DNA of 20,343 nt, taken from assembly GCA_002763225.1 (NCBI GenBank), contig PFAI01000003.1, positions 1 through 20,343 on the forward strand, in the 5' to 3' direction. The DNA comes from Candidatus Diapherotrites archaeon CG10_big_fil_rev_8_21_14_0_10_31_34. GTDB taxonomy: Archaea; Iainarchaeota; Iainarchaeia; Iainarchaeales; 1-14-0-10-31-34. A model generated the notes under the pieces. It did not search any database and was not told the DNA's origin. It saw only the letters and a list, made by a program, of their open reading frames with translations. Of the stretch, positions 4,917-10,151 are shown piece by piece. Each line of letters starts with the position of its first letter. The stretch's first letter is position 1. A program made the translations under genes and the position numbers.

Positions 4917-5624
4917 TTAGAAAAACCAGCCGTACATGACTAATCTCAAAGAAAAATACCAGTAAGCAAGTGGAATAAATAAGATCCCCCAAACTATTGG
5001 ATTCCATTCCATAACTTTTTTTCCATCTAAAATCCAAAAAGGTAATAAATTAAAGCCTGCTAAAAAGAAATTAATTGAATAACCTAAATAACAAATTAAA
5101 GTAGCAACAAATTGGAAATTTGTTAATGAAGGTACAACAGTAAAAAATAAACCCAAAAAAATCAATCCTAAACTAATGTTAATTACTACTCCTGCAACAG
5201 AAATTAATCCTAGTTCATTCATTCCGTTTTTTTTGTATTCAGGATATTCTTTATCCCATCTGGTTTGTTCTTCCCAGCTTTTTTTTTGTTTTTTTGCTCC
5301 AATATAAACTGCTCCTGGTGCAGCAAAAATTGCTCCAACAAGAGCCGCAGCACCTAAAGCAAGTTTTAATCCAAAATCCCATTTTCTGAATTCAGCATGA
5401 TAATTAAAATGCCTTGCAACATTTCTATGCCCTAATTCATGTAAAATAAATGATGTTCCTAAAACAAAAAAGGAAATTGGAAGCATTATAATAAAAGTTA
5501 AAAAATTTGGAAGAAACCCCAAAGCAATTATTCCTAACAAGTTAAACCCGCTGAGCGCTAAAGCAAAAGCTATACTTAAAACAGCCCAGGATATTGCAAT
5601 ATCTTTTGTCTCTCTTGAAACCAT
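4917..5624 (-). CDS. M50 family (site-2 protease) intramembrane zinc metalloprotease
   Basis: HELGH zinc motif in a hydrophobic segment, APGAV motif, FNLLPFWILDG third-ligand motif, several TM helices. Confidence 0.93.
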   Translation of the reverse strand: MVSRETKDIAISWAVLSIAFALALSGFNLLGIIALGFLPNFLTFIIMLPISFFVLGTSFILHELGHRNVARHFNYHAEFRKWDFGLKLALGAAALVGAIFAAPGAVYIGAKKQKKSWEEQTRWDKEYPEYKKNGMNELGLISVAGVVINISLGLIFLGLFFTVVPSLTNFQFVATLICYLGYSINFFLAGFNLLPFWILDGKKVMEWNPIVWGILFIPLAYWYFSLRLVMYGWFF

Positions 5625-5702: not shown

Positions 5703-5732
5703 CGTTGATTAACGTGAGAAATTCTTTTTATT
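5703..5732 (+). promoter_or_regulatory. Promoter of the + strand pilin operon: pseudo-palindrome CGTTGATTAACG (5703-5714), BRE-like GAAA, TATA-like TTTTTATT (5725-5732)
   Basis: Box lies at -52..-41 and TATA at -30..-23 from ATG 5755. The same layout occurs upstream of ATG 9113. Confidence 0.6.
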
Positions 5733-5754
5733 TCTTTCCAAAGCCTTTTCAGGT

Positions 5755-5922
5755 ATGGAAAATAAAGCTCAAGTGTCAGTTGAACTAATTGTATTGCTTG
5801 CAGCAGTGGTTGCAGTTGCATTAGTTCTTGTCAGCCAGCTGCAAAAAACAGGAACAAAAGGAGCAGAAGTAATAGACAAAAAAACAGAAAAAATCTTTGA
5901 TGAAATCAGTGACATTAAATGA
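5755..5922 (+). CDS. 55-aa class III signal peptide protein (minimal type IV pilin-like), absent from the ORF track
   Basis: Translated by hand: MENKA|QVSVELIVLLAAVVAVALVLVSQLQKTGTKGAEVIDKKTEKIFDEISDIK*. It has a KA|Q cleavage site, a QXSXEXXXL motif and a 20-aa hydrophobic helix. ATGA overlap with the next gene at 5919-5922. Confidence 0.9.
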   Translation: MENKAQVSVELIVLLAAVVAVALVLVSQLQKTGTKGAEVIDKKTEKIFDEISDIK

Positions 5923-6338
5923 AATCAAAAGGACAAGTGTCTTTGGAATTAATTTTAGTAATGTCAGTTTTTTTCTCTGTATTGCTTTTATTTATTCCTT
6001 TAATTTCAAAAACATTTTTTTTAGGGAGTTATGTTTTGGATGTTTCAAGAGCAAAATCTTTTTCTGATTCACTTGAAATTTCAGTAAGAGAACTGAATTC
6101 AATGAGCAAAGATTCAAAAATAACTTTAACTGCAAATCCTTTGCTTGAATGGAAAATAAAGTCAGAAGAACAACAAACAACAATAACTGTTTTACTGAAA
6201 AAATATGCTAAAGAAAAGCCTTTTACTTCAAACACATTTAATTTAATTCCTTTTTCTGAACTTGAAATAACCAAAAAAACAGTTTTTGTTTTAACTAAAA
6301 CAGATAAAGGGGTTTTAGCTGAAATTCAAAAAGCTTAA
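5919..6338 (+). CDS. Class III signal peptide protein (type IV pilin-like, 139 aa)
   Basis: MKSKG|QVSLELILVMSVFFSVLLLFIPLI, with E at +5 and a hydrophobic helix. Confidence 0.88.
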   Translation: MKSKGQVSLELILVMSVFFSVLLLFIPLISKTFFLGSYVLDVSRAKSFSDSLEISVRELNSMSKDSKITLTANPLLEWKIKSEEQQTTITVLLKKYAKEKPFTSNTFNLIPFSELEITKKTVFVLTKTDKGVLAEIQKA

Positions 6339-6362
6339 ATTTTAAAACCAAGCAATTCTATT

Positions 6363-7445
6363 ATGACAGTTTTATTAGATGGCTTTGATATTGGAAGAAT
6401 TACATTTGATTTTTTTCAAGGATCAGAAATAAATTTTTTTTCCATGCCTAGAGAAAAACCTTTTTTGAATTCTTCAAGATATTGTTTTCCTTATCCTTTT
6501 TATCCTTTTATTAATTTTGTTTTTTACCCAAAAAAATTCCTTGAAAAAAACAACATAAACTTGATTTACTCTTTCAAGGTTTTTCCTTTAAATAAACTTC
6601 CATGGATTGCAGATGTAGAAGAAATTCATTACATTAATGCTTTTTGCACCAGATTTCCAAATTCAATGAACTCTATTGGGTTAAGTTTAATTAAAAAAGG
6701 ATTAAAATCAGATTACTGCAAAAAAATAGTTTGTTTAAGTGAGTATTCAAAAAAAACAGTGGAATCATTTGGGGGAAAAAAGTTAGCCGAAAAAACAATT
6801 GTGTCTTTCCCTATATCAAAACCAGTTAAATCAAAAAACAAAAAACAAAAAGAAAAAATTTCACTGCTTTTTGTTGCAACTAACCCGAATTACAAGGGAA
6901 CAGAATTTGTTTTTTCTGCCTTTAATGAACTAACTAAAAAATATGATGTTGAATTAAACTGTTTCGGGAATTTTCCTGAAGAAACAATTAAACAGTTTCC
7001 TGAAATAAATTTTAATTTGGTTTCGTCAACTGAATTCAAAGAAAAAGTTTTGCCTAACCAAGACATTCTTTTAATGCCTTCTTTAATGGAGTCATTTGGT
7101 TTTACTGCATTACAGGCTTTATCTAATTCAATTCCAGTTATCTCTTCTGATATAATGGCTTTGCCTGAAATAAACCATGAAAACAAAACAGGTTTTTTAA
7201 TTAAATTTCCTGAATGGTATCATAAAAAACTTTTTTTTAATCCATTTCTTTTTTCCAGAGAATCAGTTAAATTAAATAAAAAAGAAATAATCAGTCAGTT
7301 AATAGAAAAAACTTCTTTGTTAATTGAAGATTCTTCTCTAAGAAAACAGTTTGGGAGAAACGGCTTAAGTGAAGTTGAAAAAGGAAAGTTTTCAGTTAAG
7401 TTCAAGCAAAAACAAATGAAAGAATTGTTTGGTGAATTAACTTAA
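6363..7445 (+). CDS. Glycosyltransferase family 4 (GT-B fold)
   Basis: LLFVA....KG motif, DILLMPSLMESFGFTALQALSNSIPVISSD, 'EINHENKTGFLI', 'LRKQFGRNG...FS'. Confidence 0.92.
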   Translation: MTVLLDGFDIGRITFDFFQGSEINFFSMPREKPFLNSSRYCFPYPFYPFINFVFYPKKFLEKNNINLIYSFKVFPLNKLPWIADVEEIHYINAFCTRFPNSMNSIGLSLIKKGLKSDYCKKIVCLSEYSKKTVESFGGKKLAEKTIVSFPISKPVKSKNKKQKEKISLLFVATNPNYKGTEFVFSAFNELTKKYDVELNCFGNFPEETIKQFPEINFNLVSSTEFKEKVLPNQDILLMPSLMESFGFTALQALSNSIPVISSDIMALPEINHENKTGFLIKFPEWYHKKLFFNPFLFSRESVKLNKKEIISQLIEKTSLLIEDSSLRKQFGRNGLSEVEKGKFSVKFKQKQMKELFGELT

Positions 7446-7801
7446 ATAAAAACTTTAACTGAAATTTCTTTTACTTGCTCTTTTTCAAAATAAAATCCAT
7501 TGGTTTTCAGTTCATTTAATCCTTTTTCTCCGTTAATTTCAATTTTTTTTTCTTTAACTATAATTTCTCCTTTTTGAAAAAGAAACATTTTTTTGAAATC
7601 TTCTTTCATTTCTTTTTCATCAAATTTTTTTGTTTTAATCCAGACTTTAATTAAATCATTTTCTTTTTGCAAAACATAAATTTTTTCTAAATCAGCTGAG
7701 TTTTTTTCAATTGGAACAGAAATAACTGCAATTAAAATCATTAAACTGATTAAAGCCTCTAAAGTGAAATTAAATCCTTTTTCTTTAATTGCATGAGACA
7801 A
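7442..7801 (-). CDS. Class III signal peptide-like (pilin-like) protein; TTG start could be 7810, 7804 or 7801
   Basis: KEKG|FNFTLEALISLMILIAVISV. GGAG at 7814-7811 upstream of the TTG codons. Overlaps the upstream gene. Its stop shares TTAA 7442-7445 with the convergent GT4 stop. Confidence 0.75.
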   Translation of the reverse strand: MSHAIKEKGFNFTLEALISLMILIAVISVPIEKNSADLEKIYVLQKENDLIKVWIKTKKFDEKEMKEDFKKMFLFQKGEIIVKEKKIEINGEKGLNELKTNGFYFEKEQVKEISVKVFI

Positions 7802-8234
7802 CAAAAACAACTCCTGTTTCTCCTGTTTGATGAATTAAAACAAATCTTCTTGCTTCAAAACAATCTGCTTTTTTTTCTCCAACAACTATCAGTTTTTCTC
7901 CTGCTGACTCAATTCTGATTTGCTTTAATTTTTCCGGAAAATTCTTTTCGTTTAATTTTTCAGCTAAACTTAAATCAATTACATTTTCTTCTATTCTTTT
8001 TTTTTCAGGGTTATAAAAAGCAATTCCTTTTTCTGGTTCCAGCTCATTACAATTTTTTATCAGCGAGTCTGCAAAAAACAAGGCTTTTGATTTCAAGTAA
8101 TTTAATTCTTTTTCTTTTTCTTCTGTTATTATCTGGTTTAATGAATTAAACATTAAATAAATCATAAATAATAAGACAAACAATGAAATCATTGTGTCTG
8201 ATTCAATTATTCCTTTACTTGTAATGTTCTTCAA
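7785..8234 (-). CDS. Class III signal peptide-like (pilin-like) protein, 149 aa
   Basis: SKG|IIESDTMISLFVLLFMIYLMF with an acidic residue at +5. Single N-terminal TM. Overlaps both neighbours. Confidence 0.75.
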   Translation of the reverse strand: MKNITSKGIIESDTMISLFVLLFMIYLMFNSLNQIITEEKEKELNYLKSKALFFADSLIKNCNELEPEKGIAFYNPEKKRIEENVIDLSLAEKLNEKNFPEKLKQIRIESAGEKLIVVGEKKADCFEARRFVLIHQTGETGVVFVVSCN

Positions 8235-8553
8235 CCCCTATTCCAATTCCTTTATTTGAATTAGTGATATTTTCTGTTAAAGTTTTTTCTTCTGCTTTTT
8301 CTTTTCCTTTAATGCTTTTTATTTTTCCTTCTTCAAAAAAACAGTTTTCTTCTAATTTGATTTCTTCCCCTGAATTAGAGTAAATTGAATCTGCAATCAA
8401 AAAACATCTTGAAACACTTGATTTGGCCGAAAAAAGTTCTTTTTTTTCTTCCATTTTTTCATTTGCGTTTGAAAGAGAATTAATTAGCAATCCAATTAAT
8501 GCAAGGTATACAAGCAAAAAAATTATTGCTTCAAAATTAATTATTCCTTTTAT
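8215..8553 (-). CDS. Class III signal peptide (pilin-like) protein; probable non-canonical ATA start at 8553 (track start is TTG 8517)
   Basis: In-frame upstream of 8517 the sequence reads ATA AAA GGA ATA ATT AAT TTT GAA GCA, giving (M)KG|IINFEAIIFLLVYLALIGLLI with E at +5. GGTGA lies 4 nt upstream of the ATA. Confidence 0.75.
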   Translation of the reverse strand: MKGIINFEAIIFLLVYLALIGLLINSLSNANEKMEEKKELFSAKSSVSRCFLIADSIYSNSGEEIKLEENCFFEEGKIKSIKGKEKAEEKTLTENITNSNKGIGIGVEEHYK

Positions 8554-9113
8554 TAAATCACCCTGAAAGCAATTAATTTTACTGTATAATTAACCGGAAT
8601 AAAGAATTTGCTTTTTGACTGGTTTTCTGTTATTTCTGCTCCAACCAGATTGTTTTTGTTTATTCCTCCGGTAAAATGAAATTCCACTAAAAAAATTTTT
8701 TCTTCTAATTTGATTACAATTGTTTTACTGTTTTCTTCAATGAATTCTTTTGTTATTTCTTTTCCTGTTATTTTAATTTTTTTGTATTCTTTGTTTGAGT
8801 TGATTTCTTTAACAAAAATTTCTTTTGCTTCTGTTTCAGAAAACACTTTAATCAGTTTTTCTGAAATTTTTTGGTTAATTTTTTTTCCTTCAGTTGAACC
8901 AAACAAAATTTCGTTTGAAATTGTTTCTTCTATAACTGAATCGACTGCATTTTCCAGTAAGTTTCTTTTAAAAGAAGTGTTTTCTATTTCAATTAATTCT
9001 GCTTCAGTTAAATTTTTCTTTGAATTAAACTCTCCGATTGAATAAACCAGATTAAAATAAATTAAAATAAAAATTAAAACCAGAACAAAACTCATTAAGC
9101 CTTTGTTTTTCAT
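8553..9113 (-). CDS. Class III signal peptide-like (pilin-like) protein, 186 aa; first gene of the - strand cluster
   Basis: MKNKG|LMSFVLVLIFILIYFNLVY (no acidic +5). Four N-X-S/T sequons: NLT, NTS, NQS, NYT. Confidence 0.72.
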   Translation of the reverse strand: MKNKGLMSFVLVLIFILIYFNLVYSIGEFNSKKNLTEAELIEIENTSFKRNLLENAVDSVIEETISNEILFGSTEGKKINQKISEKLIKVFSETEAKEIFVKEINSNKEYKKIKITGKEITKEFIEENSKTIVIKLEEKIFLVEFHFTGGINKNNLVGAEITENQSKSKFFIPVNYTVKLIAFRVI

Positions 9114-9135
9114 TCCAGAATTCTGTCTGAATTAA

Positions 9136-9165
9136 ATTAAATAGTTTTTCTAACGTTGATTGCCG
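9136..9165 (-). promoter_or_regulatory. Promoter of the - strand pilin-like operon: box CGGCAATCAACG (9165-9154), BRE-like GAAAAA, TATA TATTTAAT (9143-9136)
   Basis: Box at -52..-41 and TATA at -30..-23 from ATG 9113, the same spacing as the promoter at 5703-5732. Confidence 0.6.
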
Positions 9166-9167
9166 AA

Positions 9168-10151
9168 TTAATCTGTTTTAAACAAAGAGTCTGCAACTAA
9201 ACCAATTTTGATGTTTTTTAATTCTTTTGTCTGTAAAACTGAATTTCCGTTTATCTGGATTTCTTTTTCTGTTTTAACTGTAATTCCGTATTCTTCTGAA
9301 ATCCATGCTTTGACTTTTTGTTCATTGAAAGTGTATTCAATTATTCTTGTATTTAATCCATTAATCACTTCTTTTCCTATTTCTTTTAGTTCTGGATCAT
9401 TTAATGCCTGTTCTGTTGTTTTTTGGATTCCTGCAGGATCCTCAGTAACTGAAGGAATTGCATCTACAATAACTCCTAAACTTGTTTCTCCTTCTTTTGA
9501 ATAACTTCCATAATAAAACAGATTGTCTCCATCAAAAATCTGCACTACTTTATTTTCTTGTGTTCCTGTTTCAGTTCTGTATTTTCCGTTTTTTAAATAA
9601 TACTTTGAAGTTGTTGTATCTCCATTTGTTTGTTCAACTAAATCAAATTCAATGTTAGTTAACTCTTTTGATTTTCCCAGGATTTCCTGAATTGATTCTG
9701 TTGTTCTTTTATCTTCTTCTTTTTGTGCTCCTGAAATCAGTTCAGCATACTGGTTGTCATTAAAAGAAGTTTTTTCCGGTGCGCTCATTCCAGAGTTCAT
9801 TACTAAATTTGTTCCAAAAATAATGTAAACCAAAAATAAACAGCCTATTATTGTTGCACTCAATAAAATCATTATATTATGGCTTTCCGGTTCACTTAAT
9901 TTTTTTCCTTTTCTTGTGAGAGAATAGTATTTCCATTTTCTTCCTTCATCTTGTTGTTTAATTAAATCTGAATTAACCAGCAGTTCTAAATGCTGTTTTA
10001 TGGTTGGAGAACTCATTTTTAATTTGCTTGATAACTCGCTTAAAGTATAATTTCTTTCATTTAACAGCTTAATTATTTCTATTCTGGTGTCTGAACTCAA
10101 TGCTTTGAACTCTTCTTTCCCTATAGTTAATTCATCGGTTAATTCGGTCAT
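9168..10151 (-). CDS. Membrane-anchored ArsR-type wHTH transcriptional regulator with a C-terminal extracytoplasmic LolA/RseB-like domain
   Basis: FKALSSDTRIEIIKLL...TLSELS...TIKQHLELLVNSDLI...RKWKYYSLT (ArsR wHTH). TM IMILLSATIIGCLFLVYIIFG. Then KYYLKNGKYRTE...IFDGD...IGKEVING...KAWISEEYGITVK...LKNIKIG.VADSLF, a LolA-superfamily pattern. Confidence 0.85.
   Translation of the reverse strand: MTELTDELTIGKEEFKALSSDTRIEIIKLLNERNYTLSELSSKLKMSSPTIKQHLELLVNSDLIKQQDEGRKWKYYSLTRKGKKLSEPESHNIMILLSATIIGCLFLVYIIFGTNLVMNSGMSAPEKTSFNDNQYAELISGAQKEEDKRTTESIQEILGKSKELTNIEFDLVEQTNGDTTTSKYYLKNGKYRTETGTQENKVVQIFDGDNLFYYGSYSKEGETSLGVIVDAIPSVTEDPAGIQKTTEQALNDPELKEIGKEVINGLNTRIIEYTFNEQKVKAWISEEYGITVKTEKEIQINGNSVLQTKELKNIKIGLVADSLFKTD

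Follow-up and report, generated by a model that had tools for sequence, protein, structure and literature searches.

The window analyzed here, the 20,343-nt contig PFAI01000003.1 of Candidatus Diapherotrites archaeon CG10_big_fil_rev_8_21_14_0_10_31_34 (contig C34 of the genome designated G000; 1.04 Mb, 81% complete), contains two convergent pilin operons, each preceded by a palindrome-like box of 12 bp. This two-box observation is real, lies well beyond chance and extends wider than first proposed. The boxes are the likely operators of a near-universal archaeal factor combining an XRE-type helix-turn-helix (HTH) with a DRTGG-like domain (hereafter XRE), which would co-regulate one predicted DNA-uptake system in most Iainarchaeota. 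To this reading, which is based on sequence comparisons, we assign a probability of about 0.62. The uptake set would comprise the two pilin operons, a pilus ATPase plus two platform proteins, a lipoprotein and a pair of OB-fold and TctA proteins. The box and this gene set are conserved, the box recurs at the promoter of XRE itself from DPANN archaea to Thermococci and Methanosarcina, and in family f2 it is lost together with XRE.

Both promoters in the window revealed the same layout. Box 1 (CGTTGATTAACG, positions 5703..5714, plus strand), a predicted operator, lies 40 nt before the ATG at 5755. It is followed after 3 nt by the 7-nt sequence GAAATTC, similar to a transcription factor B (TFB) recognition element (BRE), and by the TATA-like 8-mer TTTTTATT at 5725-5732, from which 22 nt lead to the ATG. 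Together, the latter two elements form a predicted leaderless promoter (5718..5732, plus strand) with a BRE score at the 84th percentile. Box 2 (CGGCAATCAACG, 9154..9165, minus strand) starts 2 nt after the stop codon of an ArsR-type gene and is located 40 nt before the ATG at 9113. Here, the same 3 + 7 nt, including the BRE-like GAAAAAC (94th percentile), precede TATTTAAT at 9143-9136 (promoter 9136..9150, minus strand), and the distance to the ATG is again 22 nt. In both cases the box thus lies 10 nt before the TATA-like sequence, and the coordinates bear out the identical arrangement described in the original prediction. The same applies to the deviation from the perfect palindrome CGTTGATCAACG, which amounts to one base in box 1 and three bases in box 2, in a CpG-poor genome (observed/expected ratio 0.44). 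Box 1 is the only site in the 1.04 Mb of G000 that comes within one mismatch of CGTTGATCAACG. A T/A peak at -30..-24 from the ATG, found genome-wide with our own gene calls (1117 genes), indicates that many transcripts are likely leaderless and that the 8-mers are TATA boxes. Two details had to be amended. An additional CGTTGAT half-site does exist but at 513-519 instead of 453-459, and the TTCWGGW motif ahead of the ATG, though common to both operons of the window, is not conserved in the operon 1 and operon 2 promoters of relatives.

To compare the box with chance, intergenic CG-N8-CG sites of G000 were counted. A TATA-like 8-mer was present exactly 10 nt downstream of 13 of the 234 sites (both strands), compared to 0-3 such 8-mers at the other 24 offsets and at most five for other spacer lengths. 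A scoring matrix, derived from 12 G000 sites, is independent of all other genomes. Five of 681 G000 promoters reached at least 11 bits at a distance of exactly 40 nt to the ATG while 0.06 were expected, a comparison that is partly circular since these sites belong to the training set. At this fixed offset the box is more frequent than expected by chance. The matrix scan of G000 yielded 20 TATA-anchored matches of at least 11 bits at the proper offset versus 0-5 elsewhere, some of the matches being both faces of one site. Box 2 scored 18.7, its TATA-like sequence being outside of the search pattern. From 96 sites of genomes other than G000, the consensus CGTCAATTGACG was obtained.

Orthologous loci were compiled as the 30 best matches for each target gene, drawn from 61 genomes. 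The box is kept in front of operon 1 in 20/29 loci and in front of operon 2 in 24/30 loci (G000 included; one locus was too short and was dropped), which agrees with the expected conservation in orthologous promoters. It also precedes the pilus ATPase gene in 16/30 loci and the gene of a giant lipoprotein (1000-1400 aa) in 24/30 loci, counts that include a few sites too far upstream to be promoter sites. In G000 itself, boxed genes besides operon 1 are the pilus ATPase gene followed by two platform genes (C64; PF00437 and two PF00482), a gene for a 978-aa lipoprotein (C26), for which no Pfam family was matched, and dxs (C36). In G023, a 1.24-Mb single-contig genome of which 1.21 Mb were scanned, the box precedes a 120-aa OB-fold gene with a single transmembrane (TM) segment, followed by a TctA gene (PF01336, PF01970). 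This pair, a likely DNA-import channel, was boxed in 15/26 loci and in 9/11 further loci. Three of the 11 box-negative loci among the 26 belong to genus relatives of G000 in which the wrong upstream open reading frame (ORF) had been scored and TctA itself is boxed. Four genus relatives have no OB-fold gene ahead of TctA, and in 4/4 of them TctA is directly boxed. TctA matches were detected in 54/61 genomes, including all eight family relatives; one of them (L416, G005:C2:523748-524866) contains one internal TAA. The box thus recurs at the pilus ATPase, the lipoprotein and both pilin operons, but it is not a general pilin motif. Only two of six class III signal-peptide genes detected in G000, and one of 15 in G023, lie under a box according to an automatic operon walk, which missed some members. 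A pilin-wide regulon was rejected on the grounds of the G000 ratio and of the boxes at isoprenoid and regulator genes. Seven genomes (G018, G024, G025, G034, G036, G042, G058) were box-free at every pilus and uptake promoter tested. They keep boxes at HMGR or XRE, five of them at HMGR. The start of box-free pilin genes (G034, G036, G058, G025, G024) is often not leaderless but preceded by a Shine-Dalgarno-like leader.

The candidate box binder XRE is encoded at G000:C16:27024-27728 and matches PF01381 (HTH_3) with 34.8 bits (cut-off 23). Proteins of this type (~230-250 aa), which would correspond to COG1709 with PAB0475 of P. abyssi, occur in Iainarchaeota, Micrarchaeota, Thermococci, Methanosarcina, Thermoplasmata, Korarchaeota, Asgard archaea and Desulfurococcales. 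The XRE protein of T. kodakarensis is BAD85877.1 and that of M. acetivorans AAM07388.1. Within Iainarchaeota, 28 of 29 XRE promoters contain the right half-site and a TATA-like sequence and 24/29 score at least 9 bits; ten of 20 further XRE promoters were boxed as well. Outside of this phylum, the box was found at XRE in 25/29 relatives from Thermococci, in 47 of 63 distinct Methanosarcina-like upstream sequences and in 25/80 archaea-wide loci, compared to 5.5 in shuffles. In family f2, XRE was detected in 0/13 and the box at 0/6 promoters. From the fold of XRE and its conserved self-site it is probable that XRE dimers bind the 12-bp palindrome. In some Thermococci XRE promoters (L520-L529), a second half-site is situated just downstream of the TATA box.

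XRE is associated with isoprenoid genes. It is located just upstream of the HMG-CoA synthase gene (HMGS) in 30/80 archaea-wide loci, and HMGS lies within 1.5 kb of XRE in 62/79 Methanosarcina-like loci. Where the two genes are apart both are boxed, HMGS in 4/5 cases by a strong box located 22 bp upstream of the CG of the BRE. In three of the 80 loci (L358, L393 and L394, two of them named Aenigmarchaeota), XRE is divergent from TctA. Of the HMGR promoters in Iainarchaeota, 18/30 score at least 9, often with two boxes 10 nt apart, the nearer of which overlaps the BRE. No HMGR match was obtained in the genus of the window (0/6 genomes), in which a tandem box precedes dxs (G000 and 5/5 genus relatives). 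G000:C36:1756-5363 (L003) carries the genes ispD, ispF and dxs of the methylerythritol phosphate (MEP) pathway. The presence of MEP genes along with the missing HMGR match suggests that the mevalonate route was replaced in this archaeal genus. In G023, a tandem box precedes a likely pyruvate:ferredoxin oxidoreductase operon, identified by N-terminal sequence only. Tentatively, XRE may be envisaged as a controller of isoprenoid supply that uses the operator CGTCAATTGACG from DPANN archaea to Methanosarcina and that Iainarchaeota could have rewired into a competence regulon, moving the operator by ~5/10 bp in step at all uptake promoters of a lineage and rebuilding it on dxs upon replacement of the mevalonate route.

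The mode of action may depend on the position of the site. At XRE and isoprenoid promoters (HMGR or HMGS operons; dxs in the genus) the site overlaps the BRE, and binding would result in repression, to which a second site 22 bp upstream, often beside the overlapping one, might contribute. At the window promoters, a single site ending 3 nt upstream of the BRE could activate transcription via TFB or a helper, e.g. the membrane-bound ArsR protein, and the DRTGG-like domain may sense the signal. Activation was the core of the original prediction, which postulated a dimeric factor acting on both operons. A shared, conserved palindromic site next to the BRE and a co-regulation of the operons are supported. 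Activation is plausible, but we consider it only moderately likely since the BREs of the four pilus-arm promoters of G000 are strong (84th-98th percentile, from a crude matrix) and since the arrangement in families with short spacing, where pilus box and BRE overlap in the manner of the XRE promoter, fits repression. It is therefore conceivable that XRE represses all targets, the pilin promoters of the window included, by crowding TFB, and that a change of ligand de-represses them. This explanation is in line with the strong BREs and with the overlap at the XRE promoter and in families with short spacing. On the other hand, the distances between box and ATG argue against it. They amount to ~40 nt in the family of the window and to ~32-36 or 41-46 nt in other families, and are nearly constant within a genome (standard deviation 0.62 nt versus 3.56 nt overall; 75 sites, 23 genomes; 0/5000 shuffles). 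Within a genome, all promoters of pilus and uptake genes have shifted jointly to ~35, 40 or 44-45 nt whereas 34-38 nt were mostly retained at the XRE promoter, and a distance of 44-45 nt leaves ~8 nt between the end of the box and the BRE. The spacing table was read by hand, with ATG starts scoring at least 9 retained and the ATG at 40 used where the script had picked an earlier TTG or GTG. The kin in it are not independent, and sites with longer leaders or unclear starts were dropped, among them operon 2 of G006, G007, G020, G033, G047 and G048 and the lipoprotein of G007, G008, G022, G029 and G044, so that the standard deviation is optimistic. On balance, repression at all targets is unlikely.

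Three other explanations are still less convincing. The ArsR-type winged HTH (wHTH) protein encoded at 9168-10151, which was originally proposed for binding assays, might bind the box and, in the manner of ArnR or ToxR, activate the pilus genes. Its gene is directly upstream of operon 2 in 12/30 loci and in many more no further than ~10 kb from the cluster, matches were present in every box-positive genome listed, and it was unmatched in four of the seven pilus-box-negative genomes (74-89% complete), while its matches in two others are unlinked and among the weakest. By contrast, none of 30 ArsR promoters contains the box (best score 7.0 bits), the protein is kept in the box-free family f2, and the pilus-box-negative genomes retain boxes at HMGR or XRE. 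Moreover, no close match was obtained in four of five distant genomes tested, including boxed genomes of Thermococcus, Methanofastidiosum and Theionarchaea. As the box binder ArsR is thus very unlikely, but it may be a co-regulator, as it is unmatched in those four genomes. Similarly improbable is the explanation that XRE binds the box, but the pilus serves adhesion or host contact and the regulon links the construction of the envelope (lipid, pilus, lipoprotein) with growth instead of DNA uptake. This would suit the isoprenoid genes and the putative pyruvate:ferredoxin oxidoreductase operon that share the box, as well as a lipoprotein outside of Pfam families. However, a box of its own precedes the OB-fold/TctA pair, which tracks the pilus promoters of each genome in presence and spacing, and other pilus systems are devoid of the box. 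The boxed pilus probably takes up DNA. It is hardly credible that the box is due to chance or merely a long BRE that extends the core promoter. Its right end, a CG followed by AAA, does resemble the usual BRE, and in most genomes a strict-pattern count over the whole genome fell below the reversed control. Nevertheless, only ~11 of 767 promoters contain a box at 35-49 nt, the box is a full palindrome detached from the BRE in the window, and it disappears together with XRE.

Several results weigh against XRE as the regulator of the uptake system. XRE promoters of Bathyarchaeia and Desulfurococcales lack the box though the recognition helix is alike, it was not found at XRE in 16 of the 63 Methanosarcinales-like sequences, and XRE could be the target of another factor. 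No box was detected at five distant HMGR genes, nor in promoter position at 19 TctA loci of Thermococci relatives, several of which are without the operon head. The match between the right end of the box and the usual BRE inflates scores there. No TctA match was obtained in G000, which is 81% complete. About a dozen G000 sites precede toxin-antitoxin-like or other accessory genes (PIN, DUF5678 with an aspartyl protease, nucleotidyltransferase-HEPN, NYN, YoeB-like, Yip1), which are outside of the reach of the model. To these points the strength of the BREs and the overlap in short-spacing families, discussed above, have to be added. Finally, the orthology to Methanococcus genes described below rests on family and gene order.

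XRE-type controllers bind short palindromic tandem operators and activate or repress depending on position. The restriction-modification controllers C.BclI, C.AhdI and C.Esp1396I and other XRE regulators have the same HTH fold as the protein described here. The archaeal activators TFB-RF1, Ptr2, ArnR and EarA bind at a fixed distance upstream of BRE/TATA, and SurR activates or represses according to the position of its site. The location upstream of the BRE at fixed spacing is a common property, but these factors belong to another family and recognize another motif, and in our case the spacing shifts by lineage in steps of ~5 nt. While spacing of the TFB-RF1 type was found in the family of the window, the weak BRE was not. 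Bacterial competence regulons (CRP-S/Sxy) are comparable in that the site of a metabolic regulator marks pilus and DNA-import genes; they differ by unrelated proteins, by the basal machinery, which is archaeal here, and by the metabolic link, which is isoprenoid and not sugar. COG1709, an XRE-HTH protein spread across archaeal phyla like XRE, is listed as a 'regulator' (PAB0475) specific to all Archaea in Table 2a of a paper whose relevant passage gives neither site nor targets (PMC1852104). In Methanococcus maripaludis, type IV-like pili, a single-TM OB-fold gene (MMJJ_13020) and a TctA-like gene (MMJJ_13030) are indispensable to transformation, and an M50 peptidase was also hit in the screen (PMC10133366). 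Likewise, a single-TM OB-fold gene followed by TctA (PF01970), class III pilins and a pilus ATPase are found here, and an M50 peptidase gene flanks box 1. As far as considered here, that paper describes no shared promoter motif or regulator for the transformation genes (PMC10133366). Within a limited coverage of subscription journals, no published account of this motif, regulon or regulator function was found, and the literature search revealed no regulator of archaeal mevalonate flux. Our data provide a specific candidate operator and target list for a widely kept archaeal transcription factor, testable in Thermococcus and Methanosarcina, and point to an archaeal control of mevalonate flux. 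They pick out which of several DPANN pilus systems likely performs DNA uptake and suggest regulated natural competence in an uncultured phylum, and the lineage-wide shifts of operator spacing represent a natural experiment on regulator-TFB geometry.

Across the order, both convergent operons are conserved. Operon 1 starts with a 55-aa class III signal-peptide pilin (5755..5922, plus strand; PF04021, 28.8 bits, above cut-off), followed by a pilin-like protein of 139 aa (5919..6338, plus strand; weak PF04021 match, E 0.025), which has matches in 45/61 genomes. The head of operon 2 encodes a pilin-like protein of 186 aa (8553..9113, minus strand) with a basic N-terminus, a Gly residue and a hydrophobic stretch; it matched no Pfam family at cut-off but has counterparts in 41/61 genomes. 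Three more small minor-pilin-like genes of operon 2 with uncertain starts (7442..8517, minus strand) were recognized by their ORFs and N-termini, one of which (7785-8234) revealed a weak ComGE match (E 0.0067). The ArsR-type wHTH protein (9168..10151, minus strand; HTH_5, E 3.6e-11) possesses a membrane helix. Divergent from operon 1, an M50 peptidase gene (4917..5624, minus strand; PF02163) shares the intergenic region of box 1, which on the opposite strand lies 78 nt before the start of this gene; the peptidase is inside the locus in 23/30 operon-1 loci. Between the convergent operons, a GT4 glycosyltransferase gene is located (6363..7445, plus strand; PF00534). The operons take up ~3.2 kb in four relatives of the genus; in G005 and other families the span is ~2 kb, and therefore an insertion of the glycosyltransferase gene is likely.

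Some further boxes were observed at other sites. In the Thermococcus group, tandem boxes precede small genes of 70-80 aa (L637, L641, L632), one of which is divergent from an adenylate-kinase-like gene and one from an SRP54-like gene. Toxin-antitoxin-like and accessory genes are often boxed at the spacing of the family, in G000 at C22:18599, C45:583, C3:833, C62:7866, C45:20068 and C11:11625, in G004 at L098, L118 and L119, and in G001 at L123 and L126. A near-perfect box lies within a likely DNA polymerase gene (G000:C21:41556), with no start site found behind it. At G000:C54:2125-3703 (L002), a promoter cassette, in which two TATA-like sites, one per strand, flank the box, occurs three times before Yip1/lipoprotein genes, and a similar cassette is present at C21:37977.

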